Below the pieces are notes generated by a model. The model did no database searches, was not told the DNA's origin, and saw only the letters and a list, made by a program, of their open reading frames with translations. Source: a virus. Taken from it: a stretch of DNA of 48,261 nucleotides. The stretch lies in IMG/VR virus record IMGVR_UViG_3300045988_064045, positions 1 through 48,261 of that record; one strand, 5' to 3'. The translations under genes and the position numbers were made by a program. Below are positions 1 to 48,261 of the stretch, in pieces; the stretch's first letter is position 1, and the number at the start of each line of letters is the position of its first letter.

Positions 1-55
1 CTGAGGTGTTCGCGTTCTCTGCGGACTCAGATGCACTAGTAGCGGAAGCAGCACT
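1..55. repeat. 55-bp terminal direct repeat (identical to 48207..48261); circular-assembly overlap or terminal redundancy
   Basis: nt 1-55 (ctgaggtgttcgcg...gcagcact) are identical to the last 55 nt of the window. A 55-nt overlap is typical of a k-mer-sized circular-contig artefact. Confidence 0.9.
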
Positions 56-5365: not shown

Positions 5366-5392
5366 ACCCCTAAAGTAATTATACCATAAGTC

Positions 5393-8015: not shown

Positions 8016-8373
8016 CCTTTCCCTCTTTCACAAGCAAGAATGCCATCAAAGCAGACTTTGCTTCTATGTCATACAGTGTCTCCGCGACGACCATGCTCAG
8101 ATACCCCTGAGGGACACTAGCTCTATTACAGAAGGTCCTCATGTACGAGAAAGTGTTATCACCCCTATTGGTGATCCTGATGGCATCTGGTAGCATCTGG
8201 TACTTTCTGGACGTACACTGGACGAAGTTCTCTACCAAGTCTATGTCTGGACGACCTTCACAGTCCGTTTTTAATATCTTCTTCAGGAAGTTGTACCCCA
8301 AAGTCTTGTACTCTGGTTCTTTCTCCCAGTCAGATTCACAGACTTCTTTGATCTTGTCTTCTCGTCTACCCAT
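7948..8373 (-). CDS. hypothetical protein (141 aa)
   Basis: ORF in the gene chain; no recognisable motifs. Confidence 0.35.
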   Translation of the reverse strand: MGRREDKIKEVCESDWEKEPEYKTLGYNFLKKILKTDCEGRPDIDLVENFVQCTSRKYQMLPDAIRITNRGDNTFSYMRTFCNRASVPQGYLSMVVAETLYDIEAKSALMAFLLVKEGKVVARQHADNYNPTIYGLHRWSL

Positions 8374-8822
8374 CAGATACCAGTGCTTCCGTAACCGTTC
8401 TCGCCACGGTCAGACATCGTCATGCTGTCAACTTTGACTACATCACCAGTCGTGTACGGGACCATGATGATCTGGGCAATGCGGTCACCCTTGTAGAAAC
8501 AAATGTTGTGACCTGTGTTGTTCATGAAAGTAGCACCGAGTTCTCCTCGGAAGCCAGAGTCGACAATGCCGACACCGTGAGTCAGACCAATGCCTTTCTT
8601 GCCAAGACCAGAACGACCAGCAAGAAGCCCGAAGTAACCGTCTGGTATCTCGAGCGCAATACCGAACGAGATGAACTTGTAACTGTGTGGCATTATCGTG
8701 ACGTTCTCTGCACACTTCAGATCAAAGCCTGCGTCACCGAGATGAGCTCGACTCGGCTCGAACAGATCTGGGTTCGGGTAGTCTAGACCCTTGCCTTTCG
8801 GCATCCACTTCAAGTCCATCAT
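8373..8822 (-). CDS. dut: dUTP diphosphatase (trimeric dUTPase)
   Basis: Motifs AGFDL, LLAGRSGLG, GIVDSGFRGE and C-terminal RGENGYGSTG. Confidence 0.85.
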   Translation of the reverse strand: MMDLKWMPKGKGLDYPNPDLFEPSRAHLGDAGFDLKCAENVTIMPHSYKFISFGIALEIPDGYFGLLAGRSGLGKKGIGLTHGVGIVDSGFRGELGATFMNNTGHNICFYKGDRIAQIIMVPYTTGDVVKVDSMTMSDRGENGYGSTGI

Positions 8823-9424
8823 TTCACCTTCGTGTTATCACGGTTGTCATCATACATCTGGATCAGATCCGGCTCGTACTCTCTGACACAGTCATGCATC
8901 TTGACAGCCAGTTCTCGGACCTCCCACTGAGCATTATTGCCAAGACGAAGGTCAAAGAAGTGGAACAGCTCCCTGAAGTTAGTCGTCACCATCAAGTTAG
9001 TCTTAGTTGCTTCTGGGAGATAGAACCTCGCGTCCTCTGGTTTGAAACCAGCTTCAAGAGCAGCTTTGTACTCACGAGCACATGTCTGCATATGCTCACG
9101 GAAGTCTTCTTCGAAGTCCTTGACTCCATTGATCTCGGGAGGCACCACGTACCAGTCGTCACCAGAGAAGTTATATTTAATATACCGCTGGCTTTCTTGA
9201 CAGAAGCTCATCAGACGATGACGTACGAGTTGGTGTGAACATGCACGGGAGATACCGGAGATCTTGAACTGCACCTGAGCATGTTCTAGGATCGAAGTGT
9301 GTCCTACACCGTAACAAGACCGGATCCTCTTCAACGAGACGTCGTCTTTACCGTAACAGAGACCTGCTGCCAGACTGATCTGAGCTATCGGATCTGAACT
9401 GATGCTCACAATCTGTACTTCCAT
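8819..9424 (-). CDS. thyX: flavin-dependent thymidylate synthase ThyX
   Basis: ThyX signature RHRxxSxxxxSxR is present as LVRHRLMSFCQESQRY. Confidence 0.8.
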   Translation of the reverse strand: MEVQIVSISSDPIAQISLAAGLCYGKDDVSLKRIRSCYGVGHTSILEHAQVQFKISGISRACSHQLVRHRLMSFCQESQRYIKYNFSGDDWYVVPPEINGVKDFEEDFREHMQTCAREYKAALEAGFKPEDARFYLPEATKTNLMVTTNFRELFHFFDLRLGNNAQWEVRELAVKMHDCVREYEPDLIQMYDDNRDNTKVK

Positions 9425-10417: not shown

Positions 10418-10781
10418 CGTCATCATCCACCTCCTCCTCAATGTCACAAGAAGCAACTACGCTGAACTCAGACACATCATCAGTCGTAAACGGAAGCATG
10501 TGCAACACGTCCATGTCTACAAAGTCAGACAAGCCCTTGAACTTGATCTTGCTAGTACCGTCATGATTGATACCGATGAAGTCGAGCAACATCTCACCGA
10601 CGACCATCTGTTTAGAACCAGGGACATTAGCTACAAGCTTGGTGTTCTGGTTGAGCATCTGGGTGAGCTGGACGACATTAGCCAGCTCAGAATACTTACT
10701 AGACAAAGTCAAGCCGACTTTGCCGTTCGCGTTCTGGTTGTAGCCGCCGTTGGAGACTACGATCTTGACTTCTACTTTCAT
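10392..10781 (-). CDS. hypothetical protein with poly-Asp/Trp C-terminal tail
   Basis: 129 aa. C-terminus CDIEEEVDDDDDDWGDDE. Confidence 0.4.
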   Translation of the reverse strand: MKVEVKIVVSNGGYNQNANGKVGLTLSSKYSELANVVQLTQMLNQNTKLVANVPGSKQMVVGEMLLDFIGINHDGTSKIKFKGLSDFVDMDVLHMLPFTTDDVSEFSVVASCDIEEEVDDDDDDWGDDE

Positions 10782-11266
10782 AATGCAGACTTCCCTTCCC
10801 TGCGATACTTCTGCCGGATCGACTCGAGGTACTTTTCTCTCGAACTCGAACTCGACTTGACTACATTCCGTGGTGTTTCCATACCATCATCTGAGGCATC
10901 CAGAAGCCCTCTGAGGCCACTTGTGTCTTCACATGAGTATATACCTGTGTCAAGGTATTCTGCCACCTCCTGTAGCTCCTCAGGCCTTACGAGTAAGTAG
11001 ATCTCATTTGACTTGAGGAACTGGATTGCAAACACCGGGATCTTCTTGTCGGTGAAAGCATGGACTTGAAGTTTGTCCAAGTCCAGCTTGTGCACCGAGA
11101 TGGAGTTGGCATCTGTAGACTTGAGCTGGCACAAGACGTGCTCGTTCTCACCATCTTCTTTAGCAACCCATCCATTGCCACTTCCGGGGACTTGCTTCAT
11201 CCCCAGAGACTCCATCACCTCGGCTTCGTTCTTGTAGTAGAACCTTCCGGACCGACCGGGCATCAC
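10778..11266 (-). CDS. PD-(D/E)xK nuclease, Hjc/RecU-like (putative)
   Basis: EAEVMESLGMKQVPGSGNGWVAKEDGENEHVLCQLKST resembles the Hjc-type E...GSG...D...(E/Q)xK arrangement. Confidence 0.35.
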   Translation of the reverse strand: MMPGRSGRFYYKNEAEVMESLGMKQVPGSGNGWVAKEDGENEHVLCQLKSTDANSISVHKLDLDKLQVHAFTDKKIPVFAIQFLKSNEIYLLVRPEELQEVAEYLDTGIYSCEDTSGLRGLLDASDDGMETPRNVVKSSSSSREKYLESIRQKYRREGKSAL

Positions 11267-11568
11267 ATACCCCTTGCCGACTCTGAAGCCATGTAGGAGA
11301 CCTGAGCCAACGTGTCAGATACTTCCTCGCATGCCTTCACCAACTGAAGCATACCTGTCGCACAGACCATCGGAACATTGTTCGGATCATGTGCATCTAC
11401 CTTTGTCAAGAAAGTGACTGGCATGAAGCCGTTGGAGAACGGGATCACACTCTGGACCACCCAGTCTGACTCAGCATCGTCCCTCATGAACAAGAAACCG
11501 GCGTAGGTGAACTGGATGCAGTTCTTACCGTCATAGACTCGACCATCAAGGTCTCCAAGCTTAATCAT
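11263..11568 (-). CDS. hypothetical protein
   Basis: Track ORF 11263..11610. The likely start is the internal MIKLGDLDG. Confidence 0.35.
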   Translation of the reverse strand: MIKLGDLDGRVYDGKNCIQFTYAGFLFMRDDAESDWVVQSVIPFSNGFMPVTFLTKVDAHDPNNVPMVCATGMLQLVKACEEVSDTLAQVSYMASESARGM

Positions 11569-11944
11569 TCGAAGGCCTCTCCATCTCGTAGACACTGTAG
11601 ATCTTGTCAATGATCTTCTCAGACTCGAACTTAGCTACGATGTCGGCATCACCCTTGAAGTCATGCGAAGCCAGGAACTTAGCCATCCGCTCGATCTCGT
11701 TCGCGATCTTGTCGAACTTACTGGGCTCATGGGATATGAGCTGAGTCGGGTTGAGCTTGATCATTTCGCAGACGTCAATGTTGTCGCCGTCATTGAATAC
11801 CGCACTGCGATTGCACCAGACGTAGTCTTTCGAAACTGCCACGACGGTGAATGCTTCACCATCTGCTGCGTTGAAGAACACGGCGCTGGAACCGGGGATG
11901 AGATCCTTGCCGTCCTGAGACTTCGGGTATTCCATAGTTGCCAT
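11561..11944 (-). CDS. hypothetical protein (127 aa)
   Basis: ATG at 11944 with GGAAGGAAAG RBS; about 60 nt downstream of promoter e. Confidence 0.4.
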   Translation of the reverse strand: MATMEYPKSQDGKDLIPGSSAVFFNAADGEAFTVVAVSKDYVWCNRSAVFNDGDNIDVCEMIKLNPTQLISHEPSKFDKIANEIERMAKFLASHDFKGDADIVAKFESEKIIDKIYSVYEMERPSND

Positions 11945-12008
11945 CTTACTTTCCTTCCTCTGAAGACTTACTGGGAGGGGAGCAACTTTCCGTCACTCCC
12001 CTCGGTAA

Positions 12009-12021
12009 CATTATATCACAG
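12009..12021 (-). promoter_or_regulatory. extended -10 promoter TGTGATATAATG, family member e (overlaps the stop codon of the upstream gene)
   Basis: Plus strand cattatatcacag. Confidence 0.55.
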
Positions 12022-12231
12022 TTCTGCTCGTTCTCTGTCGAGAACACACAAGAAGTAGTGGAAAAGCGTGTTCAATGCTACTTCCAAAGCAAACTTGTCC
12101 GAGACCTTGACTGAAGCACTGTAGATCTCTTCGACCAGATCGCTGTCTTCCAAAGCCGGCTTCACGTACTGTGGGTTCAAGTGGTCCTCAAGGATCGGGA
12201 GAACTACTTGCTGCTTGTAGCTAAGTCCCAT
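12016..12231 (-). CDS. hypothetical protein (about 71 aa)
   Basis: Track ORF 12016..12315. The likely start is the internal MGLSYKQQ. Confidence 0.3.
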   Translation of the reverse strand: MGLSYKQQVVLPILEDHLNPQYVKPALEDSDLVEEIYSASVKVSDKFALEVALNTLFHYFLCVLDRERAEL

Positions 12232-12248
12232 TCTAGCTTCAACTCCTT

Positions 12249-12485
12249 CTAGATCTCGACGTAGAAGACGCGGCCGTCGTAGAGCTTCACTGCATTGACC
12301 AGGAAACCGTTCCAATTGTCGACGAACACGTTCTTGACCTTGGAGAGCGAGATGCGAAGGGTCTCACCATCGAACGAGGTGAAGAAAGTGTCGGTGTCCT
12401 CTTCCATCTCCTTGATGTCGTCATCGGTGTAGAAGTCGTAGCAGATGGAAACGTTCTTCTGCTTGAGGCTCTTGGTAGGTTTCAT
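12249..12485 (-). CDS. hypothetical protein (78 aa); first gene of the early block
   Basis: ATG at 12485 with AGGAG RBS; 50 nt downstream of promoter f. Confidence 0.4.
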   Translation of the reverse strand: MKPTKSLKQKNVSICYDFYTDDDIKEMEEDTDTFFTSFDGETLRISLSKVKNVFVDNWNGFLVNAVKLYDGRVFYVEI

Positions 12486-12537
12486 TTTGAACTCCTGTCT
12501 CTCTAGACTACTGGAAACCCGCCGGATTGGCGTGATT

Positions 12538-12553
12538 CCATAGTATCACAAAG
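12538..12553 (-). promoter_or_regulatory. extended -10 promoter (TGA TACTAT), family member f, with upstream A8 tract and TTGCTGATTCTG box
   Basis: Plus strand ccatagtatcacaaag. Upstream on the minus strand is AAAAAAAATGCAAATTCTGCTGATTCTG, and the same box occurs at promoter a. Confidence 0.45.
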
Positions 12554-12675
12554 AACTGAGCAGAATCAGCAGAATTTGCATTTTTTTTGATAGACCATAG
12601 AAACAGGCAAGAATCTAAGCTTTTTGAACAAGAAGAGATAGATAAAAGCTAGTAAGACATGCAATATATAGAACA

Positions 12676-12845
12676 AAAGCCCAGATCTATATTGGATCTG
12701 AGCTTGTTATTTAATATCTGCTATGTCTGCTATCTGCTATGCTTATATCTATATCTGTTTCTCTCTTGTCTAAACAGCTATTATCTAACGTTGGCTTCTG
12801 TCTCTCGGGTCGTGCCGTTTGGCCTGTTTGGCCGCCCTACGGACA
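12676..12845 (-). ncRNA. candidate about 170-nt non-coding RNA (promoter k to intrinsic terminator), carrying a GC-rich 5' structure and 3x AUAGCAG repeats
   Basis: Extended -10 TGTTATAAT at 12852-12860 (minus strand). No ATG in the transcribed stretch. Terminator GCUCAGAUC-caauaua-GAUCUGGGC plus UUUUGUUCU at about 12676-12706. Confidence 0.3.
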
Positions 12846-13053
12846 AGGCCGATTATAACATAAGCCTAAAATTCTTGTAGATCTCACTTTTTCTCATCTG
12901 GACAAGTCCATGACTTCAATGGACATATCCAGCATAGCCAGATCTAGAAAACTCAGATTCTCAACTACTTCTACATGGAGAAAATTATACAAAACTTATA
13001 CAATTCAGATGTCCTCTGCGGAAGGCACTCATTGACTATGGGTATACATAAAT

Positions 13054-13074
13054 AAAGCCCCGTAAAGGGGCTTT
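13054..13074 (-). terminator. hairpin AAAGCCCC-GUAAA-GGGGCUUU followed by an A/U-rich run; terminator after the RuvC-like gene
   Basis: Perfect 8-bp stem directly downstream of the 13116 stop. Confidence 0.45.
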
Positions 13075-13115
13075 AGATGAGGACTGGATGCCTCTGGTAT
13101 ATGTTGTGGGTATAT

Positions 13116-13733
13116 CTATTCAATGGGCTTCAACACGGCTGGATCACATCTCACCAGGCATTGGGAGATAGCCATGGCATCACAGACATTGTCGTCGATG
13201 TGCAACTTCTTTCCAGACTTAGACATGAACGTGCCCTTGTTCTTACGCTTGGACTTGACTTCTGATATGAAACTGCTCTTCATGTGTTTCTGTGTCCGCA
13301 TTGCCCATTCTACAGTCGGGAACTTGTTCTCATTGACACCATACGAGTTCTGAGCTGGCTTGTTTGAACCAACCACTGCTGACTTCCAAGCGCGTGTGTC
13401 GACTGTGTAGACTGGGATAGACGGGAACTTAGACTTGACTGTGTCTTCGATAGACCCGTTCAATGACCCAGTAGCACGGATGTAGGAGATGCCGAGATTG
13501 TTCTGCGAGAAAGTCCGCATCCTCTCGTACACGACTGCATCTGGACTGTACTCATCCAGAAGCCTTATTAAAACTGCAGATACTGCTGCACGCTTCTCCC
13601 ACTTCTTCTTGCACGAGGAGAAGTCAACTGCTTCAGCATGGACTACCTTCATGCCCCTTGATACTGCGACAGCAGTCTCGGTGTAAGACTGGTCGATACC
13701 GATACAGACTATGTCAGATGTAGATCCCATCAT
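13116..13733 (-). CDS. ruvC: RuvC-family Holliday-junction resolvase
   Basis: N-terminal DIVCIGIDQSYTETAVAV (catalytic Asp region) and C-terminal DDNVCDAMAISQC (terminal catalytic Asp motif). The track's N-terminal MSSGGLIERI is a translation of the palindromic element; the likely start is MMGSTSD. Confidence 0.65.
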   Translation of the reverse strand: MMGSTSDIVCIGIDQSYTETAVAVSRGMKVVHAEAVDFSSCKKKWEKRAAVSAVLIRLLDEYSPDAVVYERMRTFSQNNLGISYIRATGSLNGSIEDTVKSKFPSIPVYTVDTRAWKSAVVGSNKPAQNSYGVNENKFPTVEWAMRTQKHMKSSFISEVKSKRKNKGTFMSKSGKKLHIDDNVCDAMAISQCLVRCDPAVLKPIE

Positions 13734-13752
13734 GATCCTTTCTATGAGGCCA

Positions 13753-13767
13753 CCAGATGACATCTGG
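13753..13767. promoter_or_regulatory. 15-bp palindrome CCAGATGACATCTGG (copy 2 of 3) between the candidate promoter and the RBS of the RuvC-like gene
   Basis: Perfect 7-1-7 inverted repeat, embedded in a larger near-palindrome GAGGtCCAGATGtCATCTGGtgGCCTC. Confidence 0.5.
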
Positions 13768-13802
13768 ACCTCTTTGACTTCTAATAGGTATATTCTATAG
13801 GC

Positions 13803-13842
13803 TCATATAGAAAAGGGGCCACAGAAAGGATCTGGTAGCCCC
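13803..13842 (-). terminator. intrinsic terminator (GGGGC-N18-GCCCC plus UUUUCUAUAU) after the Cas4-like nuclease gene
   Basis: Plus strand aaaaggggccacagaaaggatctggtagcccc. On the minus strand the stem is followed by the U-tract. Confidence 0.55.
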
Positions 13843-13851
13843 AAGTATAGA

Positions 13852-14676
13852 CTATAGACGGACACGCCCACCAGGTAGACCCCAACAACTGTCTTGGCAG
13901 GGGCAAGTCTTACATCTCTTGCAAGTAGGAGACTTTGCATCAGATGGACGTGAGACGAGTTTATGGTCATCGACTAGACGACGGTAAGCCCAGACAATCT
14001 GCTCAGCACGGTCAATGAATGGAGCTACTAGCTTGGGGTCATAGTCATAGACCTCAATCCTGAACTCCTGACTGTTCTTGTCGTCAGATAGGACGAAGCC
14101 CTTGTGGATGCCAGTCAAATGCATGTACCACTGGCACTGCTTCCAAGCTGAGGGATGCTTGGTCTGTTTTTTAAAAGAGAAGGTGTTGACTGACTTGATC
14201 TCACCGACCATAAGACCGTCATAGAACTCGGGGACACGACAGATGATGTCTGGAGTGTAGGACATCATGTACTTGTCGGAGAACTGTGTGTTGTCTAGCT
14301 GGTCCCATGTAGAATAGCCAGCACGGATCAGAAGTCTCTGCCACTTCTCATGGACTGCGTTGCCCTCTTCAAAGATCCTCATCAAGCCGATTGAAGTCTG
14401 TTCTCCTTGCTTCATGTGGTAGACAAGTGAGAGGACTTGCTGCCTGCAACAGAACGAGTTCTCAGATACCAACATCGCACTAGCATGGAGACCGACTCGC
14501 TCCTGAGACTCAGCACCTCGAGTCATCACATTACGTAGGAACTTGACTTCATTCTCGATATCTTTGTCAAGGTAGAACATCTTGTTGAAGATGTGGGCCA
14601 ACTTCTCAGCTTCACTAGTCTGAACAACTATCTTCTTCGAAGCAGCCTGTTTTTTAATATCGTCTACTACACCCAT
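13852..14676 (-). CDS. Cas4/RecB-like PD-(D/E)xK exonuclease with C-terminal 4-Cys (Fe-S) cluster
   Basis: C-terminal CKRCKTCPCQDSC cluster. Central ...DIICR...GEIKS...QCQWYMHL region is typical of RecB-family nuclease cores. Sits in a recombination module beside the RecA-like gene. Confidence 0.55.
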   Translation of the reverse strand: MGVVDDIKKQAASKKIVVQTSEAEKLAHIFNKMFYLDKDIENEVKFLRNVMTRGAESQERVGLHASAMLVSENSFCCRQQVLSLVYHMKQGEQTSIGLMRIFEEGNAVHEKWQRLLIRAGYSTWDQLDNTQFSDKYMMSYTPDIICRVPEFYDGLMVGEIKSVNTFSFKKQTKHPSAWKQCQWYMHLTGIHKGFVLSDDKNSQEFRIEVYDYDPKLVAPFIDRAEQIVWAYRRLVDDHKLVSRPSDAKSPTCKRCKTCPCQDSCWGLPGGRVRL

Positions 14677-16963: not shown

Positions 16964-16992
16964 ATTATAAGCCAATCTACACTTGAAGTAAA
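16964..16992 (-). promoter_or_regulatory. sigma70-like promoter j (TTTACT-17-TATAAT) on the minus strand
   Basis: -10 is the revcomp of 16964-16969; -35 is the revcomp of 16987-16992. Confidence 0.4.
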
Positions 16993-17098: not shown

Positions 17099-19840
17099 CT
17101 AAGACCTAGCCATGAGCGATGAATTGTATTTAGTCACACCGGATATGTAGATTGACTTGTTGAACTGGAGAGCACCTGCTTCATGAAGAGCGTCAATCAC
17201 GCGGGAGGTGACCAGACGAGACTTGCATCTATCATAGAAGTCGTCATATGAACGGAAGACTCCGTTCTTGTCTCGCTCTTCCTTGATCTGTACGCAAGCT
17301 TTCTCGCCTACGTTCTTGATCGTAGATAGACCAAGTTGGATCACCTTCTCACCTTCCATCTTCCTGAGCTTAGTCTTGGGGTCTGACCAATTGACATGAG
17401 GCAGGAAGATAATCGAACCATCTGCTACAGCAAAAGACTGGAAGCGACCCATCTCTGAGTCATCCCTCGCGTACTTTAGCTTGGAGAACCAGTACTCGTT
17501 CGGGAAGTAAGTTTTGTAGAACATTTCTTCCATGGAGATCAAACTGTAACCGACTGAATGACCCTTATTAAAAGTGTAAGTCGTCATCTTCTCGAACAGG
17601 TCTGTAGAAGCTTCTTTGTCAAAGCCGTTCTTGACTGAGCCCTCGATGAACTTCTTGAAAAGCTCGTCCCTCATCTCATTGTAGAGACGCTGTGCTGACT
17701 CAGTCATGTGCGAGCCCTTCATCATCTTCATGACCTTGTCTGCATCTTGCCAGTCCATACCAGCCAAGTTGACACATATCCTCTGGACTTGCTCCTGATA
17801 GATAATCGTACCATACGACTCTGAAGTCTCGTTGTAGTAGTACAGCTTCTCAGCTTCATCCCTGTTGTACTTGTTCATCGCGTACATCTCAGGCTGACCA
17901 GTACTAAGAGGACCAGGTCGATTCATTGCAGACGCTGCTACAACGTCATTGAACGAGTCACAGTTGATCTGAGAAAGGATGTTACGTGCCGTAGGTTTCT
18001 CGAACTGGAAGACTCCATCAGTCCTACCCTCACGGAAGTTAGTCAACATTTTCTCGTCATTTACGATCTCGGTGTAGTCTACTGTGATTCCTGTCTCCTT
18101 GCGAAGATCTCCGATTGACTCCATCGTCTTCAGACCAAGGATGTCGAACTTGATCACGTTGATAGACTCGATATCTTCTAGATCGTACGAAGTGTAGACG
18201 TCACCTTTGGAATCTACTTTCAATGCGGTGTAGTCAAGAATGTTACCACCTGTGATAGCAACACCTGCTGCATGAGTACCGATGAAACGCACTTTCTTGT
18301 AGAGCTTCGAGAAGTGTGCTAAGATGTTGTCGTACTTCTTGTTGTACTGGATGCCCTGCGGAGAACTAAGCATACCTTCTGCATCTAGAACTGCAGTCGC
18401 GCCGTCGATATACCTGTTGACAAACTTCTTGATCTCAGCAAGTGTCTTTTTGTCCATCTTCAAGTCGTACTCGCCTTTGTCGTTCAAGACTTCAACTTGA
18501 AGACCACACACTTTAGCAAGATCATTCAGAAGGTTGTCAACTTTGTAAAGACCGTAAGAACAGATTCTAGCTGCGTGTCCCTCGTACTTCTTACAAAGGT
18601 ACTCTATCACCTCATGTCGACGAGAAGTCTCGAAGTCAAGATCGACATCTGGAAAGTTCTTCTTGTCTTTGCGCAAGAACCTTCGGAAGTCAAGTCCGAA
18701 GAACAAGCTGTCAACTTCTGTGATCTTCAATGCATATGCAACTAAGCAGTTACAGACCGAGCCTCGACCTGGCCCAACCTGAATACCATGGTCCTTAGCC
18801 CAGTTCGTGTAGTCAGCTACGATCAAGAAGTAGTCCTCGAAGTGGTGATATTTAATAACTTCAAGTTCTTCTTTGCATCTCTCAATGTATTCTTTCCTGT
18901 ACTTGCCTCTATCTTTGAGACCTTTTTTGACATTAGCAAGAAGAAGCTTCCAGGAATCCGTCTTACCGTCGTCAATCTTAGGAAGGACCAGTGGAAGATC
19001 TTTCAGATAGTCATCTTCACACTTCGCCTCGATCTCGTCGAGGTTTGCATACATCTCCTTCGCGAGTCTCTTCGCGTTGCCTGGCTTCAAATCCTTGCCA
19101 TGCATCTTCACGAACCTCATGAACATCTCGTCAGGAGCTGGCATGTACCTCTCAGAGTACGTGTCGACAATGTGGTCCATGTTGTGACCAGCAATCTCAT
19201 GCATCTTGCAGTATGTCGACATGTCATCTCGTCTACCTCGGTGCGAGTCTGAAGTCAAGATCATCTTCCAGCCGTGATGCTTTGACATCTCGATCAACCC
19301 GAGATTGACTTCTTCTTGGACTCCATGATCACTGATCGGATATGGTTGTATCTCGACATACAAGTCTTCACCGAAGATCTTCTCGAGCTCGACAATGAAC
19401 TTCTCAGCTCTTTCCGGATGCCCCTTCAAGATAGCTTGTGAAGAGTAAGAAGCAATACAAGCTGTAGTACAAATCAAACCTTCATGGTACTTCTTCAACA
19501 AAGACAAGTCCCAGATCGGATTGTAGTACTTTTGCTTGTCACCTTCAAACTGGATGCGGTTCAAGTTGCCGTAGCCTTTGAGGTTCTTCGCGATCAAGAT
19601 CAGGTGGTAGCCTCGCGTCTTCTCCTTGTACTTTGGGAGGATGTATCCCTCGACACCGAGGATAGGCTTTATGCCTTCGACTTTACAAGCTTCATAAGTC
19701 TGGATGAGACCATTCGTGTTACCATGGTTAGTCGTGCAAAGAGACTTGTAACCGAGTTCCTTAGCCAAAGCTGCAAGTTCAGTTGCTTTCCCGTACCCGT
19801 CGAAAGTCGAGTACTCGTCGTGGCGATGCAGATCAAACAT
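17099..19840 (-). CDS. dnaE: DNA polymerase III alpha-type replicative polymerase (DnaE-like, PHP domain + Pol III core)
   Basis: N-terminal PHP HRHDEYSTFDG...TNHGN. Core motif GPGRGSVCNCLVAYALKITEVDSLFFGLDFRRFL. 913 aa. Confidence 0.8.
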   Translation of the reverse strand: MFDLHRHDEYSTFDGYGKATELAALAKELGYKSLCTTNHGNTNGLIQTYEACKVEGIKPILGVEGYILPKYKEKTRGYHLILIAKNLKGYGNLNRIQFEGDKQKYYNPIWDLSLLKKYHEGLICTTACIASYSSQAILKGHPERAEKFIVELEKIFGEDLYVEIQPYPISDHGVQEEVNLGLIEMSKHHGWKMILTSDSHRGRRDDMSTYCKMHEIAGHNMDHIVDTYSERYMPAPDEMFMRFVKMHGKDLKPGNAKRLAKEMYANLDEIEAKCEDDYLKDLPLVLPKIDDGKTDSWKLLLANVKKGLKDRGKYRKEYIERCKEELEVIKYHHFEDYFLIVADYTNWAKDHGIQVGPGRGSVCNCLVAYALKITEVDSLFFGLDFRRFLRKDKKNFPDVDLDFETSRRHEVIEYLCKKYEGHAARICSYGLYKVDNLLNDLAKVCGLQVEVLNDKGEYDLKMDKKTLAEIKKFVNRYIDGATAVLDAEGMLSSPQGIQYNKKYDNILAHFSKLYKKVRFIGTHAAGVAITGGNILDYTALKVDSKGDVYTSYDLEDIESINVIKFDILGLKTMESIGDLRKETGITVDYTEIVNDEKMLTNFREGRTDGVFQFEKPTARNILSQINCDSFNDVVAASAMNRPGPLSTGQPEMYAMNKYNRDEAEKLYYYNETSESYGTIIYQEQVQRICVNLAGMDWQDADKVMKMMKGSHMTESAQRLYNEMRDELFKKFIEGSVKNGFDKEASTDLFEKMTTYTFNKGHSVGYSLISMEEMFYKTYFPNEYWFSKLKYARDDSEMGRFQSFAVADGSIIFLPHVNWSDPKTKLRKMEGEKVIQLGLSTIKNVGEKACVQIKEERDKNGVFRSYDDFYDRCKSRLVTSRVIDALHEAGALQFNKSIYISGVTKYNSSLMARS

Positions 19841-20544
19841 TACTCAGCCTCTTCTTCACGCTTCTTACCGAGCTCATAGTCGCGACGGTAGAGATGGAGT
19901 GAACCTGCGATATGCGTGTAAGTACCAAGGTCAACTCCGAGTTCCATTGCCATCAACATCTGCATGAACGTGAACTGGAACACATCAAACGGGAAGCCCA
20001 TCCAAAGATCATTAGACCTCATGTATGTCGTCATGTATAGCTTGCAATCACGGATGAAGAACTGAAGTGACACAGTACAGTTGACGTCCTTAGAAGGCGT
20101 GTCCCTTGGCTCCTTGATGTGGATCACTGCTTGACGAGAATCAGGATGCTTCCTGAGCAAGTCAACGACATAGTCCCACTGGTCAAAGCCGTACTTCTCC
20201 TTGATGCAATAGCCATAGTTGGAGTTCACGTTCTTACCGTCGTCCGAGAACCTCTCCCATGCTTTCGTGATCAAACCGATTGAATGGAGATCCCTCTTGC
20301 CACTGAGATACCAAGCGAGTTCACCGACCGTGTACCTGACCGACATCTTCCTGATGGGATTACTCATGAAGTTGCGAGTCGGATCATTTATGATGGTGAT
20401 TGCATTCAAGAACTCGCCGACAACTTCTCCGTCTCGAGAATCTAGCTGCTCTTCTTCAGCACCAGTAGAAAGAAGATCCCACCAGAACTTGAAAGCCTCG
20501 TCTGCCGTCTGTGCTCTGCAGATAATTCCAAGTTGATTGAACAT
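19840..20544 (-). CDS. ThyA-family pyrimidine C5-hydroxymethylase/methylase; Asp at the Asn177-equivalent position suggests dCMP hydroxymethylase
   Basis: Aligns to the E. coli ThyA C-terminal half. Nucleophile Cys present in NCTVSLQFF (PCH region), then RSNDLWMGFPFDVFQF...GTYTHIAGSLHLY. PFD replaces ThyA PFN. Only 234 aa, the size of phage dCMP hydroxymethylases rather than ThyA. A separate ThyX is present. Confidence 0.6.
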   Translation of the reverse strand: MFNQLGIICRAQTADEAFKFWWDLLSTGAEEEQLDSRDGEVVGEFLNAITIINDPTRNFMSNPIRKMSVRYTVGELAWYLSGKRDLHSIGLITKAWERFSDDGKNVNSNYGYCIKEKYGFDQWDYVVDLLRKHPDSRQAVIHIKEPRDTPSKDVNCTVSLQFFIRDCKLYMTTYMRSNDLWMGFPFDVFQFTFMQMLMAMELGVDLGTYTHIAGSLHLYRRDYELGKKREEEAE

Positions 20545-21743
20545 TACATTGACCTCTTCTGATACTCGAGCTCGTAGATGAACTTATGATAGTCATGCAT
20601 CCTGCCAAGACGAAGGCGAAGATATTTAATAACCTTCTCGCGAAGTTCAAGATTGTTGAACACGAAACACTTGCCAACGACGTCGGCTTTGTTCCTCACA
20701 GTCAACAGTGAAGCATACTTGCCAGCATAGTTCTTGATGAGGTCTTCGCCATAGTCTGCAATGAACAACGGGACGCACGAGTAAGTAACTGCTTCAAGTA
20801 CTCTTGCTGTCATGAACTTGTACTTACAGTAACTTGCTTTCGCGAACAAGATAGTAGTCTCAGCCTTCGAGTAAGTCTTGAACATGTCTGCCGTCTGAAG
20901 CCTTGGACCAAAGTTGATGTTTGGCCACGTCTCAGCAGAATCACGTCCGCCTTCAAGCCAGTTTCCATATACCTTCGTGTCGGCAAGTCCGTCTGGCCAA
21001 TACTGGTCTATGCACCAGTCCCTCTCGTAACGGTTGCCGACATAGACGAGAGAGTCTTCAATCCAGTTTTCGTCAGAGATGACTGGAAGTTCTTCAATAG
21101 CTTCTTTACTGAAGGGAATTGCCACTTTGACAGACTTGATGTCTTCGATAGCTTTCCACCTGTCTCCAAGTTCTACTACACAGAAGTTGAGACCAAGTTC
21201 TTTCAGTCTCTTTGCTTCAGAGTAAGAAAGCTTGTAGTCAAGATCGAAGATGAAAAGCGGCACGTTGTTATAGAGGCAATACAAGATGATGCAGTACTGA
21301 ATGTATACATCTGGTTGCCAAGAAGCACCTAGGCGATCTTTGGAGTCATAGTCATTCCTACCCTTAATATCCATCCTCCATTCATGCAGAATGAATTCTG
21401 GGGCCTCTTGTAGCTTCTCGTCAAACTTTCTGGTAATGTCGTTCATAGACATTTTACTTACATCATCAATGTAGTCAACCTTCGAAGTCCTGAGGTAAGC
21501 TTTCTCGCGATCACTTCCGGCGAAAGCTTTGAAGTCTTCACTACCGAGAGACTCATAAGCCGGCTTGTCACGGTCTGGCATAAGTTGGACGACATCATAT
21601 CCGGCTTCCTGAAGACCATTGATGATAGCCCACGAATAGAAAGCGTTCCCGTCTGGCGTGCTCACAAGATTCTTCTTGTTGTCCATCTTGTAGTCCCCTA
21701 GGAAGCCCCAAAAACTGTAACCTACTTTTGGCATTCTTACCAC
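20544..21743 (-). CDS. GT-B-like glycosyltransferase, putative hydroxymethyl-base DNA glycosyltransferase (paralog 1, 399 aa)
   Basis: Motif-level resemblance to T4 beta-glucosyltransferase (YVGNRYERD; MTARVLEAVTYSCVPLFIAD versus ITLRVWETMASDAVMLID, recalled from memory). Paralogous to the next gene. Sits adjacent to the hydroxymethylase. Confidence 0.35.
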   Translation of the reverse strand: MVRMPKVGYSFWGFLGDYKMDNKKNLVSTPDGNAFYSWAIINGLQEAGYDVVQLMPDRDKPAYESLGSEDFKAFAGSDREKAYLRTSKVDYIDDVSKMSMNDITRKFDEKLQEAPEFILHEWRMDIKGRNDYDSKDRLGASWQPDVYIQYCIILYCLYNNVPLFIFDLDYKLSYSEAKRLKELGLNFCVVELGDRWKAIEDIKSVKVAIPFSKEAIEELPVISDENWIEDSLVYVGNRYERDWCIDQYWPDGLADTKVYGNWLEGGRDSAETWPNINFGPRLQTADMFKTYSKAETTILFAKASYCKYKFMTARVLEAVTYSCVPLFIADYGEDLIKNYAGKYASLLTVRNKADVVGKCFVFNNLELREKVIKYLRLRLGRMHDYHKFIYELEYQKRSM

Positions 21744-22825
21744 TCCTTCTTGTTCCAGTATGATCTCACACTGCCAATATCTGTGAGCTTCTGCATTGAC
21801 TCAGATTCTTTGATAGCCTTAAGGACTTCTGAACTCTTTGAGCAAAAGTCTTTGTCCTTAAGCTTACTTTCTATCTCGTAGAATCCGTCTACCAGAAGCT
21901 CTGATTTGATTATATCATAGATATCTGGGAAAGACTTCTCAATTTCAGACAAATTACAAGACCTGAAGACATACGGTAGACAATTGCACCATACTGCTTC
22001 ACAGAATCTCTGCCAACTAAAAGTAGCAGGATTGTACGAGGGGATCACTGCTGTAGCTTTTGACGATGCCAACAAGGCGAAGTAGTCATCCTGCTTTACG
22101 AAAGCTTTCTTGCCCTTGCCCTTCCTGTTAGTATCACACAGGTTGATGTCAAGTGAGCAATTGCTCTCCAAGTCGTCTTTAATGCTTCTCAACCAGTCTC
22201 GACCATTGCCAGAAAGAGAGCAATAGAAAACAAAGTCTTTGTATTTCTCGACTTCATAGAACTTTGACATCTGCTTCCACCTGTAGTTCCAATACGGAGC
22301 TAAGTCATAGTCATCACCATCGACAAAGTAAAGTCGACTGAAGTTTTTAAAATGGAAGATCTGCTCAAGCCTTGCTTCATCCGGATCAATCACGTAGTGG
22401 TACACATGATCACAGATACTAGAAGCTACATCAACTAACGTCAGAAAGAAGTAGAAGTTCTTCATTGATACGTAATTGAAAGCGTATTGGTCGTTCTCCT
22501 TGTCGAAGAATTTGCCACCGACACTGCAGTCATTGTAGTTGAAGTTAGAATAGATAGGAAGTTTCATCAACAACAATGTTGAGATGTCTTCTTTCTCCAA
22601 GATGTCTTTAGCTTGTTTCCTAGCATCCTTCCAGCCTGTGATATCATCTGGAGTAAACTTGACTGAGCGGAAGCAACAACTTCTAGCAAGCTTGTCAGAC
22701 TTATACTTGTCAATCAAAACGAAGTCTTCATTTGGAAGAAAGTCAGTCAAAGACTCAACTAAGAACTTGACTACATTGTCATTGCTAGTAGCCATGTTGC
22801 CTGCAAGAAAGACACCTACTGACAT
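21737..22825 (-). CDS. GT-B-like glycosyltransferase paralog 2 (362 aa)
   Basis: Shares GNGRDW and R..EAV...C.P blocks with the 399-aa neighbour. Confidence 0.3.
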   Translation of the reverse strand: MSVGVFLAGNMATSNDNVVKFLVESLTDFLPNEDFVLIDKYKSDKLARSCCFRSVKFTPDDITGWKDARKQAKDILEKEDISTLLLMKLPIYSNFNYNDCSVGGKFFDKENDQYAFNYVSMKNFYFFLTLVDVASSICDHVYHYVIDPDEARLEQIFHFKNFSRLYFVDGDDYDLAPYWNYRWKQMSKFYEVEKYKDFVFYCSLSGNGRDWLRSIKDDLESNCSLDINLCDTNRKGKGKKAFVKQDDYFALLASSKATAVIPSYNPATFSWQRFCEAVWCNCLPYVFRSCNLSEIEKSFPDIYDIIKSELLVDGFYEIESKLKDKDFCSKSSEVLKAIKESESMQKLTDIGSVRSYWNKKEW

Positions 22826-23376
22826 TTGTTCGCGTCCTCCAGCCTAGGCTCCATAACCATGTTCTCATTCAATGAATAGAACTTCCTAGCAGCTTCTTCA
22901 ACTTCACGATCGATGTCATCAAACTCGATCCTAGTAGAAGCAATAGGAGACATAAGGAATGCAGCGTCCATTGTCTTGTAGTGCAAAGACAAGTCACGAC
23001 CATCCATAGCAGAAGCGCGTGCCGGTCCTTTCCTGTCGAACATGTAGTACATAAAGACGTGCTGACGCATATTTAATAAACGATCTTCAATCTTTCCGAG
23101 ATTAGCAAGTGCATCTTTGTAGATGTAGTTCCTGTCGATAAGACCATACGTGAAGTCAGTCAGGTGGAACCGGTCAAAGATCATTGGGGAGTTAGTCAAG
23201 TCAAGAATGTTCAGCATCTTCAACATCTTGTCAGTCTCGTTCGGACTGTCCATCCAATTGCCAAGGTCTACTGTCGTAGCATCATCATGATAGACTGGAA
23301 CCCCAATCCATTCAGAAAGCTTGTTAGCAAATGTAGACTTGCCCATCCTGTCAATGCCTTCAACTATGTAGATCAT
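22816..23376 (-). CDS. P-loop deoxynucleoside-monophosphate kinase (thymidylate-kinase-like)
   Basis: IYIVEGIDRMGKST matches the Tmk P-loop (FEGIDGSGKST). The likely start is the internal MIYIV. Confidence 0.55.
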   Translation of the reverse strand: MIYIVEGIDRMGKSTFANKLSEWIGVPVYHDDATTVDLGNWMDSPNETDKMLKMLNILDLTNSPMIFDRFHLTDFTYGLIDRNYIYKDALANLGKIEDRLLNMRQHVFMYYMFDRKGPARASAMDGRDLSLHYKTMDAAFLMSPIASTRIEFDDIDREVEEAARKFYSLNENMVMEPRLEDANKCQ

Positions 23377-23433
23377 CTGATCTCCATTTCTATAAAGACA
23401 AAGGGAAGCCTTTCGGCTTCCCCTCATCATTGA

Positions 23434-23802
23434 TTACTTGCAAGTAGATTCGATCCTGTCAGAGACAACCTTGAGCTTTTTCTCAATTGCCTCTGCCATG
23501 TCTGACGAATCAAACCCAGAATACAAGCACATATTCATCCAGACGATGAAGCAATCTGCTAGTTCGTCCTTCTTGTTAGCTGAGTCACACTTCTCGTTCC
23601 TGAAGTTTTTCCAACGCTTGTCAGCTTCAAGCACTTCACCGATCTCAGAGACAAGCTGTTGCACATGATAACTGCAAAGTTTAGGATCATCTACCGGAAG
23701 CACAGAGTCTTTGTCGATGCTTGAAAAGTCATCATACATACCACTAGAAAGAAGCTTCTCCTGATTAGAAGCTTGCTGACCAAACATAGATTCGAACGTC
23801 AT
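23434..23802 (-). CDS. all-alpha NTP pyrophosphohydrolase (MazG/dimeric-dUTPase/dCTPase-like)
   Basis: LVSEIGEVLEADKRW...EKCDSANKKDELADCFIVWMNM fits the E-x-x-E ... E-x-x-D metal-binding pattern of MazG-like enzymes. Confidence 0.45.
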   Translation of the reverse strand: MTFESMFGQQASNQEKLLSSGMYDDFSSIDKDSVLPVDDPKLCSYHVQQLVSEIGEVLEADKRWKNFRNEKCDSANKKDELADCFIVWMNMCLYSGFDSSDMAEAIEKKLKVVSDRIESTCK

Positions 23803-38300: not shown

Positions 38301-38371
38301 TTGATTACCTCCGTTCTTACGACAGGGGCCGGGACTATGCCCGGCCCTAGTTGCTTTATCTCAGACTACTT

Positions 38372-41012: not shown

Positions 41013-41852
41013 CTAATAGTCAATATTTTCTAGACAATATTCGGTGAACTTTCCGATCTTCTTCTTGAGTTCAACCGGCACCATCTTCAACCACTTGCCT
41101 GGGATACCAGAAAGACCAAACCTCAAACCTGCGATCGAGCCTGCAATTGCTGCGATTGTATCAGAGTCTCCACCGTCATTGACGGCCCCAAGTACGACCT
41201 GTAAGTAAGTCTTACCGATCTTGTTCCACCATAGCACATTGTTGAATGTATTCGTGAGGCACCCAGTCGGCTTCTGAGGCCCCTTTACGTCCGTGTCAAA
41301 TGGTTTACCCATGAGAAGGTCTTGAATGATCTTAGAATAGGTCTGAATGACTTCTCTTGACTTCAAGGAATTGTGGGTGATCACACCCTGTTGGTCATTG
41401 TGATCATATAGACCTAGAAGAGCACATGGGAGAGCCCTCATCAAAGCACCATTTCCAAGGACTTCATCATCCCTGTCGATGAACTTGCCATTGTCAGCAA
41501 AGTATTCGATGCCTGCCAGACAAGCACCACCAACATCTTTTGGCATTCCTTCAAGCCATACTACAAACCTCTTCGCGACGTCCTTTTTAAAAACATCTAC
41601 ATCTGAAGAGTCAATGTCAGACAAGAACGAATCAATAATGCACATAGTCATCTCGGTGTCATCTGTGACTTCACCAGGCTTCAGGTTCAACCATCCACCT
41701 CCGATCATGTCCTTGACTCGACCATACTTAGCGATGACTTGATCTGAATCCATGAACTCAGTAGTAGCACCAAGAGAGTCGCCTATACAGAAACCGTATA
41801 GTGAACCTGCAATCTTATTCTTCAAGTTCATCTTAACTTCTGAAGAAGACAT
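41013..41852 (-). CDS. ADP-ribosylglycohydrolase (ARH/DraG/Tri1-like)
   Basis: GDSLGATTEF, TDDTEMT, GNGALMR and C-terminal GGDSDTIAAIAGSIAG: the di-metal ARH motif set. Confidence 0.8.
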   Translation of the reverse strand: MSSSEVKMNLKNKIAGSLYGFCIGDSLGATTEFMDSDQVIAKYGRVKDMIGGGWLNLKPGEVTDDTEMTMCIIDSFLSDIDSSDVDVFKKDVAKRFVVWLEGMPKDVGGACLAGIEYFADNGKFIDRDDEVLGNGALMRALPCALLGLYDHNDQQGVITHNSLKSREVIQTYSKIIQDLLMGKPFDTDVKGPQKPTGCLTNTFNNVLWWNKIGKTYLQVVLGAVNDGGDSDTIAAIAGSIAGLRFGLSGIPGKWLKMVPVELKKKIGKFTEYCLENIDY

Positions 41853-46697: not shown

Positions 46698-47759
46698 CTA
46701 ATAGTAGATCTTCTTGCCAACTTGAATGACATTGGGATTGCTGATCCCGTTGGTGCGAGCCAGAGTCATGTAGTCATTCCCGTAGCCGAGCTTCTTCGCG
46801 ATGCCAGACAATGTGTCACCAGACTGGACAACGTAGTACCTTGCTTTCTTCTCCGAGTACTTCTCGTCGACTACTTTCTGGACTTCATTGTAACGAGATC
46901 CAAGCCGGCGTTTACGGGTATCGCCGTCACCGAACGTGCCCTTCATCACCTCGAGTGCAAGGGTCGACGCGTCAGACTCAAGAATGAAGTTCACTGCCGA
47001 CTGGATCTCATTGTAACGAGAGCCAAGTGCTGACTTGCGAGCATCACCTGAGCCATACTTACCGTAGATCACATCAGCTGCAATGTCATACACGTTGCCA
47101 CTTACTCCAGTAACAGGTTTGACTTCATTTGGAGTCACAGTACCAGAGATGAAGTCTTTTAGTGAACGACCGAGACAAGCATTACAGTCAACGCCACCGG
47201 AGATACCAGGGACACTGCCGTTAGAAGTGAACTGCCATAGATCACACTGCTTACCAGGAGTCCTGTGTGCATACCCGTCATTGGGCCCGTAAGTCGGAAT
47301 CCAGCGCCACTTCTCTCCGTAAGTGTCACCGCCGTACTCATTGAACAGATGGGCTGCAATGTATATGCCATTGTCAAGTCCAGTCTCGTTCAACTTAGAC
47401 ATTGCAGCTTTGATGCCGTCATGAGACTGACCCTCAACTTCTACATCAAGGATGTAGCCACGGCAGCTTGAACCACCAGCATATACCAGACGATTGATCA
47501 TACGCTCAGCTTCAGCAGTTCCACCATTACGGTAGAAGCCATACGCGTAGTACGGGATGCCGAGTCGCTGACATGCAGCTACATTACGAGAAAGCTTTGT
47601 ATCTGCGTGATCACCATCCTGGACTCGCAAGATAGCAAAGTGGATGTTGTGCTTCACAGTATCCCAGTCAATGTCACCTTGCCACTCAGACACGTCAATG
47701 ATGGTAGGTAGGATGCTACTCATCGGTACCAGAACCAATCTTGAACACCGAGTTACCAT
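46698..47759 (-). CDS. endolysin: GH25 muramidase + 2x CW_7 + LysM
   Basis: IDVSEWQGDIDW (GH25). Two repeats of (V/M)(I/K)YGKYG(S/D)GD(A/T)RK..LGSRYNE(I/V)Q..V(N/D) (CW_7-like). C-terminal YVVQSGDTLSGIAKKLGY...ISNPNVIQVGKKI (LysM). The start is either 47759 or the internal Met at 47723. Confidence 0.8.
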   Translation of the reverse strand: MVTRCSRLVLVPMSSILPTIIDVSEWQGDIDWDTVKHNIHFAILRVQDGDHADTKLSRNVAACQRLGIPYYAYGFYRNGGTAEAERMINRLVYAGGSSCRGYILDVEVEGQSHDGIKAAMSKLNETGLDNGIYIAAHLFNEYGGDTYGEKWRWIPTYGPNDGYAHRTPGKQCDLWQFTSNGSVPGISGGVDCNACLGRSLKDFISGTVTPNEVKPVTGVSGNVYDIAADVIYGKYGSGDARKSALGSRYNEIQSAVNFILESDASTLALEVMKGTFGDGDTRKRRLGSRYNEVQKVVDEKYSEKKARYYVVQSGDTLSGIAKKLGYGNDYMTLARTNGISNPNVIQVGKKIYY

Positions 47760-48206: not shown

Positions 48207-48261
48207 CTGAGGTGTTCGCGTTCTCTGCGGACTCAGATGCACTAGTAGCGGAAGCAGCACT
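48207..48261. repeat. duplicate of nt 1..55
   Basis: Exact 55/55 identity. Confidence 0.9.

Follow-up and report, generated by a model that had tools for sequence, protein, structure and literature searches.

A predicted promoter-to-terminator unit at an operon boundary of a gut Clostridia phage and its possible role in replication

What does a phage whose genome is packed end to end with genes on one strand keep in the only large stretch that holds none? The question is raised by the IMG/VR virus record IMGVR_UViG_3300045988_064045, of which the full 48,261 nucleotides (nt) were analysed (hereafter the window). The minus strand carries all plausible genes and tiled open reading frames (ORFs) of the window, and positions 12486-13115 (630 nt; hereafter the gap) form the largest stretch without a plausible gene, the next in size being gaps of 357, 264, 256 and 208 nt. 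The original prediction, made from this one sequence, had picked out the same stretch as the only large gene-free one, which was borne out, and had placed in it a non-coding RNA of ~170 nt, origin iterons, or both. We conclude that the gap is, in all likelihood, the boundary between two operons on the same strand, with, in the predicted order of transcription, a terminator (T1), possibly a promoter (P1), a second promoter followed by a terminator with no ORF in between (the P2-T2 unit), an AT-rich spacer, a third promoter (P3), a 5' hairpin and a ribosome-binding site. As an explanation of the locus as a whole we favour, if tentatively, such a boundary with an ORF-less P2-T2 unit whose most likely role is in a replication origin.

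The gap lies between a gene for RuvC and an ORF of 78 amino acids (aa), and in over 30 independent assemblies of the same phage no gene is called in this interval, bar three fragments of 25-31 aa that are truncated at contig ends. Three candidates for hidden genes, two ORFs on the plus strand (41 and 73 aa) and a Leu/Phe-rich one on the minus strand, were rejected: codon-position bias is absent, starts vary between strains, stops and frameshifts occur, and lengths shift with an A-tract polymorphism. For the two plus-strand ORFs, which meet stops or frameshifts in other strains, the variable sites per codon position were 12/10/15 and 13/14/16, respectively, with no third-position bias.

Constrained and variable elements of the gap

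The protein clusters of RuvC and of the 78-aa ORF contain dozens of strain variants in public assemblies, which served as the source of gap sequences. The resulting alignment comprised 21 distinct gap versions of one species that were 91-95% identical, and 148 of the 630 positions (23%) were variable. Variation was distributed as follows: i) in P2, none of the 11 sites of the extended -10 varied, while three of the six sites of the weak -35 (TCTACA) did; ii) in the GC-rich domain at the start of the predicted P2 transcript (12851-12791), two of 61 sites varied (12820 and 12828), and the predicted hairpin has both in its apical loop (13 nt); iii) in T2, the stems were invariant (0/22) and the loop varied at two of seven sites; iv) in T1, the GC core stem was altered in one strain only (at 13068), a second stem change (13054) fell in the outer A-T extension, and two of the five loop sites varied; v) in the P3 block (12565-12527), nearly invariant, two of 39 sites varied. 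The constrained elements of the gap are the -10 of P2, the 5' hairpin, T1, T2 and P3, and variation in its hairpins is confined almost wholly to the loops; compensatory changes were absent among the strain versions (0 pairs). Both P2 and T2 are under purifying selection, and their conservation therefore makes a discrete, ORF-less RNA of ~170 nt a reasonable prediction; that the unit produces such an RNA we consider probable.

On the other hand, the short repeats that had been noticed first are unconstrained. They lie in the purine-rich spacer between the 5' domain and T2, with three copies of CTGCTAT at 12718-12740 (ATAGCAG on the transcribed strand) and two of TATATC at 12744-12755 (GATATA). 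Present as the original prediction had written them, they proved to be specific to certain strains: ATAGCAG is found three times in two of the 21 versions, once or twice in 13 and nowhere in six, and the second TATATC/GATATA copy is a 6-nt insertion/deletion polymorphism. Half of the spacer sites were variable (37/74 at 12790-12717), with indels of 2, 4, 6, 10 and 13 nt between strains, and nucleotide diversity (pi) was ~0.09, among the highest values of a 5-kb comparison in which the 5' domain (0.010 for the 50-nt window 12844-12795) was among the lowest. The CTGCTAT array obtained a Tandem Repeats Finder score of 36, which is ordinary among the 28 arrays of the window. The tandem GTTTGGCC that had been noted in the GC-rich island is likewise real (two copies at 12817-12833, period 9), and it is a minor allele (2/21) inside the apical loop of the conserved hairpin; in the strain versions the tandem was scored as GGCCAAAC x2 (2/21). 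The BglII-type inverted repeats did not hold up as a feature: AGATCT is found 29 times in the window against 29.8 expected, its three occurrences in the gap amount to a marginal local excess (P 0.007, uncorrected), one of the three is a portion of the terminator stem, and GATC is neither enriched nor clustered in the gap. Thus short repeats, restriction-site palindromes and GC motifs read from a single genome were strain-specific noise, and it was the comparison within the species that found the constrained elements.

The promoter P2 had been located by its extended -10 (TGTTATAAT at 12852-12860, minus strand), which was found as predicted and is invariant in all versions. Its match to a sigma-A-type promoter comprises TCTACA (12881-12876), 18 nt and TG-n-TATAAT (12881->12852), i.e., 10 of 12 matches together with the TG, and the variable -35 fits a promoter that would depend on its extended -10. 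P2 is a member of a family of extended -10 motifs of Gram-positive type (TRTGnTAnAAT, often CTGTGATATAATG), of which ~7 sites lie in intergenic gaps on the minus strand (40989, 26566, 12860 (P2), 12018, 10139, 6693 and 5386); a further site of the family lies at 16992 on the same strand. Downstream of RuvC in relatives of the phage the motif GTGATATAAT recurs, which is the same promoter type as P2. Immediately 3' of all nine candidate promoters of the genome there is a hairpin whose stability exceeds the average of 45-nt segments genome-wide (percentiles 0.2-22), for example AGGGGTCGAAAGGCCCCT after the promoter at 5386 and GAGGGGAGTGAC...GTTGCTCCCCTC after that at 12018. The hairpin that would open the P2 transcript (~55 nt) is longer than those of the other promoters and is invariant in sequence, and the GC-rich 5' structure that had been anticipated for the transcript was recovered as a predicted hairpin of 23 pairs.

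At the other end of the unit, the intrinsic terminator expected at ~12676-12706 is there (T2), with the best terminator match of the genome; in genome-wide scans T1 and T2 were the two best minus-strand matches of the whole window. Between P2 and T2 there is neither ATG nor GTG, in agreement with the original prediction of a stretch with no ATG. The two segments 12566-12676 and 12685-12784 together are the most AT-rich stretch of the genome (71% and 69% A+T, respectively, against a mean of 53% with a standard deviation of 4.7), and the former includes a homopolymer tract (A8, 12581-12588) that reads A7, A8 or A9 among strains. The P3 block follows; TGTGATAAAATGGAATCACG, in two relatives (L002 and L009), is like P3 together with its initial transcribed sequence. 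The features of the gap are collected in Table 1.

Table 1. Predicted and observed features of the gap and its downstream border, in the order of transcription (positions of the window).
Feature	Position	Strand	Remarks
T1, intrinsic terminator	13053..13075	-	AAAGCCCC-TTTAC-GGGGCTTT then TTTATTTAT; 9 pairs, 5 of them G-C
P1, candidate promoter	12984..12989	-	Perfect TATAAT, 0/6 sites variable, within the direct repeat TGTATAAGTTT/TGTATAATTTT
Two palindrome-like 12-mers, TGGA...TCCA	12899..12931	.	TGGACAAGTCCA, TGGACATATCCA; 21 nt apart, upstream of P2
P2, predicted sigma-A-type promoter	12852..12881	-	Extended -10 TATGt-TATAAT at 12862-12852 (TATGTTATAAT); predicted start ~12845
Predicted non-coding transcription unit P2->T2	12670..12845	-	~170 nt; transcript predicted
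GC-rich 5' domain ("GC island")	12791..12851	-	Predicted fold an imperfect hairpin, ~-21 kcal/mol
Hypervariable spacer	12717..12790	-	Purine-rich (64-68%), T-poor; ATAGCAG x3 and GATATA x2 in the window strain
T2, intrinsic terminator	12677..12705	-	AAGCTCAGATC-CAATATA-GATCTGGGCTT then TTGTTCT; 11-bp stem, U tract
AT-rich, pyrimidine-rich spacer	12566..12676	-	25/111 sites variable
P3, predicted extended -10 promoter	12540..12550	-	TGTGA-TACTAT; would serve the 78-aa ORF and the following genes
5' untranslated region hairpin of the P3 transcript	12513..12539	-	GGAATCACGCC...GGCGGGTTTCC
Start of the 78-aa ORF	12483..12496	-	Shine-Dalgarno AGGAG 12496-12492, ATG 12485-12483; ORF called in all assemblies

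Upstream of P2 the picture is less definite. The P1 candidate lacks both a good -35 and the TRTG motif, and its promoter status is putative. The two TGGA...TCCA 12-mers are replaced by TGGAGATATCCA and TAGAC... in most strains, and 12903-12932 is dense in variable sites; since they are not conserved between strains, they are probably no operators and were rejected as such. At the downstream border, one lineage (L121, 3001-3237 against window 12249-12485) has a 78-aa ORF only 65% identical, with the gap upstream still ~93% identical, which puts a mosaic joint of recombination at the 5' end of this ORF.

A possible origin role and its rivals

What would such a unit do? We propose, as the first-ranked of several possible roles and only tentatively, that P2-T2 serves an origin of replication that depends on transcription, as in the c2 phages of Lactococcus (compared below). 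As part of the anatomy outlined above, and at the high confidence attached to that anatomy jointly, T1 would end the replication/recombination operon (PolIII-alpha through RecA, a Cas4-like exonuclease and RuvC). P2 would then start an ORF-less transcript of ~170 nt, which would open with the 55-nt GC-rich hairpin, cross the purine-rich spacer, which evolves fast via slippage and indels, and stop at T2; next would come the AT-rich spacer, and then P3, whose transcript would begin with a hairpin of its own, and the ribosome-binding site for the operon downstream. Non-coding transcription would thereby enter the most AT-rich part of the genome, upstream of the promoter of the next operon, where the RNA or transcription itself may help to open or prime the origin. 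RNase HI, DnaG-type primase and PolIII-alpha of the phage would act next, with RecA, the exonuclease and the resolvases backing recombination-dependent replication. Several features are origin-like: the gap is the sole large one, it has the most AT-rich ~200 nt (12580-12784), the replication module is its direct neighbour, relatives have repeat arrays at the corresponding position, and the phage encodes the replication and recombination proteins just named, with no initiator or replicative helicase recognised among the ~45 ORFs scanned with Pfam and PHROGs, of which several stay unannotated. Activation of an origin through transcription, as mentioned in the original prediction, may apply in the sense of the c2 phages, and not in that of iterons.

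How far the design extends beyond the species was assessed in IMG/VR, where a PolIII-alpha search yielded 77 syntenic loci that kept the order PolIII-alpha, RecA, exonuclease, RuvC. No similarity to the gap sequence was found by blastn or nhmmer against 78 syntenic loci. An alignment of the gap with the closest relatives (L065 and L007; MAFFT) was unconvincing, and the k-mers shared 3' of RuvC came mostly from one redundant clade and from a terminator stem; both leads were dropped. Many relatives have a non-coding stretch of their own that follows RuvC, either at once or with one additional small ORF in between, with T-poor tandem repeats whose sequences are unrelated to those of the window: ATAGCA x6 in L004, TAAGAAC x7 in L009, a 21-nt unit x6.5 in L008 (18321-18454), ~300 nt of CTAGAAC-like repeats in L007 (17290-17600), and 12-nt units x6-7 in the 5' leaders of L011 (20068-20152) and L012 (20210-20281). 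In L004 and L009, GC-rich stem-loops are followed by unpaired A-rich repeats, a terminator hairpin and a promoter, with no upstream promoter of their own (a 3' untranslated region), and L002 keeps the GC-rich part without repeats or hairpin. Since L002 lacks them, at least one lineage can do without the repeats. Position and general design thus recur in relatives, and the sequence does not.

Two further observations concern these loci. A further array (38-nt x2.2 or 21-nt x4.3) lies in a non-coding leader downstream of RuvC in L078 (20143-20228); array copy number varies among near-identical relative contigs, and the repeats of type III antitoxin RNAs have periods in a range that includes 38 nt. 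Moreover L007 has, inside its own gap, a near-consensus promoter (TTGACA, 17 nt, TACAAT; 17258-17230, minus strand of the locus) that faces back to RuvC, in a block conserved between L007 and L065.

A number of points weigh against the origin role: i) homology to the origins of c2, bIL67 or 923 was not found, and 11500-14500 had no match in 50,697 phage records (blastn, word size 11); ii) T2 is strong, and the RNA would be freed there, ahead of the AT-rich spacer; iii) a persistent R-loop is not obviously favoured, as G clusters are absent from the 5' domain, where G and C are about equal, and the spacer, though at the 99th percentile for purine richness, is below the genome maximum; iv) the gap contains no DnaA box; v) GC skew gave no information on the origin, because a single strand holds all genes; vi) the architecture is not uniform among relatives, being a promoterless 3' untranslated region in L004 and L009 and lacking repeats and hairpin in L002; vii) the 5' hairpin is invariant at the level of sequence, in keeping with a specific contact between a protein and either RNA or DNA, and this agrees with a small RNA as well. 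The transcript and initiation are moreover both predictions.

The rival that survives best, possible though less likely than the origin role, is a free-standing small RNA of the phage, i.e., the P2-T2 RNA would itself be the product, with a role in trans in regulation, in protein binding or as a decoy. It might act via the conserved 5' domain and/or the single-stranded purine-rich repeats, with the 5' hairpin and the 3' terminator as protection. The autonomy of the unit (its own promoter and terminator, no ORF), the strong conservation of both ends around a variable middle and a 5' hairpin that varies in its loop only all agree with this view. Furthermore P3 would supply the downstream operon, which therefore would not need P2, and the design of L004 and L009 (GC-rich stem-loops, unpaired A-rich repeats, terminator) is shared in the absence of related sequence. 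However, conservation is lowest in the single-stranded part, which is where one would look for a base-pairing seed, the predicted RNA has no significant complementarity to the remaining phage genome (chance matches only), and compensatory pairs are lacking. Nor was a homologue found outside the species. A search of the repeat-carrying RNA against Rfam, which the original prediction had proposed, matched no family: with Rfam 15 there was no match at gathering thresholds in the whole window, and 12300-13300 gave chance-level matches only (E 4-10). Exact-pattern scans with the T2 or the 5'-domain sequence had no match in JGI metagenomes and GTDB genomes, and 22 viral-contig matches to GGCCAAACAGGCCAAAC were discarded as unrelated and chance-like.

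The notion that the spacer repeats are the functional part of such an RNA takes a more specific form, which we regard as improbable: a new kind of phage repeat RNA, in the window and in relatives, with a conserved hairpin as handle and fast-evolving short single-stranded motifs (YAGAYA, AUAGCA, UAAGAAC or UAGACU). By analogy with CsrB-type sponges or pseudo-ToxI mimics, the array might titrate a host RNA-binding or defence protein, and its turnover might then reflect an arms race. Type III toxin-antitoxin systems have tandem repeats of ~34-40 nt, a terminator and then an endoribonuclease toxin gene. The gap does not fit a ToxIN-like system: its repeats are 6-7 nt long, and the 78-aa ORF matches nothing in Pfam or PHROGs.

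The next rival, which we consider unlikely, is a leader with a conditional terminator. P2 would drive the downstream operon, and T2 would be an attenuator that is passed only with a modified RNA polymerase or an antiterminator, in the manner of lambda PR'-6S RNA-tR'; the read-through RNA may in addition form a long hairpin, tipped by T2, and undergo processing like that at lambda sib/tI. A strong promoter, a terminator ~170 nt later and same-strand genes downstream would suit such a leader. Moreover the 216-nt stretch 12595-12810 had fold z-scores of -6.2 and -3.6 (minus and plus strand, respectively), RNAalifold returned a 210-nt hairpin that pairs the purine-rich spacer with the pyrimidine-rich stretch 3' of T2, and the frequent polymorphisms at predicted pairs were G-U compatible on the minus strand. 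However, when the arms alone were tested against shuffled right arms, only the window strain stood out (z -2.8), the 20 others ranging from +0.2 to -1.1; the long hairpin therefore appears to be mainly an effect of purine-rich against pyrimidine-rich composition, and was demoted to a part of this rival. It also has no compensatory changes and no counterpart in relatives, the conserved P3 stands between T2 and the first gene, and no antiterminator-like protein was recognised in the protein-family scans.

Could the gap be punctuation only, T1, T2, P2 and P3 insulating the operons, with the RNA a functionless by-product and the repeats neutral slippage? The high variability and the many indels of the repeat segment would be expected on this view, short tandem repeats of comparable kind are found across the window and in the leaders of relatives, and L002 does without repeats and hairpin. 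Yet a functionless unit should not hold 59 of the 61 sites of its 5' domain, the extended -10 and the terminator stems invariant while 23% of the gap varies, and we rate this account as slightly less likely still than the leader.

An iteron-type origin, in which the CTGCTAT and TATATC repeats would bind a phage initiator, is highly improbable. The repeats do cluster in the sole large gap, an AT-rich flank is present (12580-12784) and relatives carry repeat arrays at the syntenic place. However, the units are 6-7 nt long, in two to three copies with irregular spacing (9 and 7 nt); they occupy the most variable segment of the region (37/74 sites), ATAGCAG x3 being limited to two strains and the motif absent from six; and no initiator gene was recognised in the ~45 ORFs scanned. 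The direct repeats are thus not supported as iterons.

Finally, a packaging site or physical genome ends in the gap (cos, pac or terminal repeat) are the least probable: although one circular assembly (ENA k119_128879) is linearised at ~12580 inside the gap, several short contigs end there and the GC-rich block includes GGGCGGC, nine near-complete contigs of the same phage (42-50 kb) cross the gap with breaks scattered round the map, the window circle is itself broken inside a gene, the TerS-like and TerL (Terminase_3) genes lie ~8 kb downstream, and hypervariable sequence and inverted repeats are where breaks in short contigs would be expected anyway, so that termini in the gap were rejected.

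The phage and its neighbouring genes

The first and last 55 nt of the window (1-55 and 48207-48261) are identical, which indicates a circular assembly with a unit of ~48.2 kb, opened within a gene. Positions 1-471 are coding and not a second gap, because an Ala/Ser-rich ORF spans the circle junction. The phage looks like a lytic siphophage of gut Clostridia. Its closest named relatives are the Agathobaculum phages AB434P2 and AB434P3 (PolIII-alpha 66% identical), next to Clostridium phages from sewage and human stool. Public sequence data with this phage include the runs SRR25936318, ERR9710470, SRR16596997 and SRR22255866 and the NCBI record OP031090.1.

Protein-family scans (Pfam and PHROGs) identified virion and packaging genes (portal, major head protein, tape measure, tail proteins and endolysin), a TerL of Terminase_3 type and a TerS-like helix-turn-helix protein. 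The replication/recombination block encodes a DnaG-type primase, SSB, a thymidylate-synthase-like enzyme, PolIII-alpha, a RecA/UvsX-like protein, an OGG-like protein, the Cas4-like exonuclease and RuvC, and RNase HI is also encoded (PF00075, E 1.6e-33). No tRNA was found in the searched sequence. In the order of transcription, RuvC is followed by the gap (13115->12486), the 78-aa ORF and several small ORFs, and further downstream by a second Holliday-junction resolvase, ThyX, dUTPase, RNase HI and then the terminase genes. The gap had been described as the place where an early (left) and a replication (right) unit meet. A hub between two transcription units is indeed what we find, but the description is too simple for this downstream series.

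Several observations on the surrounding genes stand by themselves. Two different Holliday-junction resolvases, a RuvC-like one and one of PHROG 2002 type, lie 2 kb apart and flank the gap (10778-11266 and 13116-13763). The nucleotide-metabolism set is dense, with a thymidylate-synthase-like enzyme beside a glycosyltransferase-like ORF, ThyX, dUTPase, a dTMP-kinase-like protein and a MazG-like protein (19840-20544, 20544-21743, 8819-9424, 8373-8822, 22816-23430 and 23434-23802). In a related Agathobaculum phage, a gene near the polymerase is annotated as deoxyuridylate hydroxymethyltransferase; together with the nucleotide-metabolism genes this hints at phage DNA with hydroxymethyl-dU or some other hypermodification. 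An ADP-ribosylglycohydrolase-like gene is located within the head-morphogenesis module (41013-41852; PHROG 6572, E 1e-40), and the endolysin gene (46698-47759) is directly upstream of the portal gene and not after the tail genes. Just downstream of the major head protein gene there is a very GC-rich hairpin (38325-38348; GGGGCCGGG...CCCGGCCC), probably a terminator or a stabiliser for abundant capsid mRNA.

Comparison with known systems

Iterons are typically 17-22 bp long, with at least three regularly phased and conserved copies and an adjacent initiator gene (lambda ori, P1 oriR, theta plasmids). The direct repeats of the window adjoin an AT-rich non-coding stretch as iterons do, but they lack the typical length, phasing and conservation, and no matched initiator was recognised. 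As a self-contained promoter-terminator unit between operons that is absent as such from relatives, P2-T2 is reminiscent of morons; unlike morons, it would carry no gene as payload, and signs of mobility were not seen (0 matches elsewhere). The pRNA of Bacillus phage phi29 (174 nt, Rfam RF00044) is similar in size, and the predicted ~170-nt RNA of the window would likewise be ORF-less, with a strong promoter of host type at its start and a terminator at its end; in contrast to phi29, the window has no Rfam match, siphovirus-type TerS/TerL and portal proteins, and no protein-primed replication.

In Firmicutes, 5'-terminal stem-loops protect the 5' ends of mRNAs, as in the ermC leader and the early RNA of phage SP82. 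The GC-rich hairpins at all nine candidate promoters, located at the predicted 5' end or only a few nt away from it, may be of this kind, although that of P2 is longer (55 nt) and invariant in sequence as well, and a stabilising effect would have to be assumed. In lambda, PR'-6S RNA-tR' consists of a constitutive promoter, a short terminated RNA (194 nt) and antitermination by Q. The window resembles it in a predicted short terminated RNA upstream of same-strand genes, after the Holliday-junction resolvase region, and differs in that no Q-like gene or Q-binding element was recognised and an extra promoter, P3, follows the terminator. Like lambda sib/tI, T2 lies inside a potentially longer hairpin, but this hairpin is no better than composition predicts in 20 of the 21 strains.

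The closest parallel to the favoured reading is the origin of the Lactococcus phages c2, bIL67 and 923 (Ceduovirus). There, the origin is flanked by tandem promoters (PE1 and PE2), with no ORF or ribosome-binding site after PE1 (PMC7150918), the PE1-T transcript is required for initiation (PMC7150918), and three origin types are conserved within a type and unrelated between types (PMC7150918). The window differs in two respects: the c2 region parts divergent early and late clusters, whereas all genes of the window are co-directional, and a strong terminator, T2, stands between the two promoters of the window. On the other hand, the gap is likewise non-coding and lies at the head of an operon between tandem same-direction promoters (P2 and P3, both predicted); its unit has no ORF or ribosome-binding site after the first promoter; it is over 90% identical within the species with no similarity in syntenic relatives; and the phage shares with the c2 phages a Firmicutes host and the siphophage type. 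If the unit is transcribed as predicted, the gut Clostridia phages, a widespread and unstudied group with PolIII-alpha, RecA and RNase HI and possibly with hydroxymethyl-dU DNA, would gain a candidate origin as well as a non-coding RNA that is both defined and conserved; and if the origin role is true as well, the c2-type design of promoter, non-coding transcript and promoter would reach beyond the lactococcal phages.

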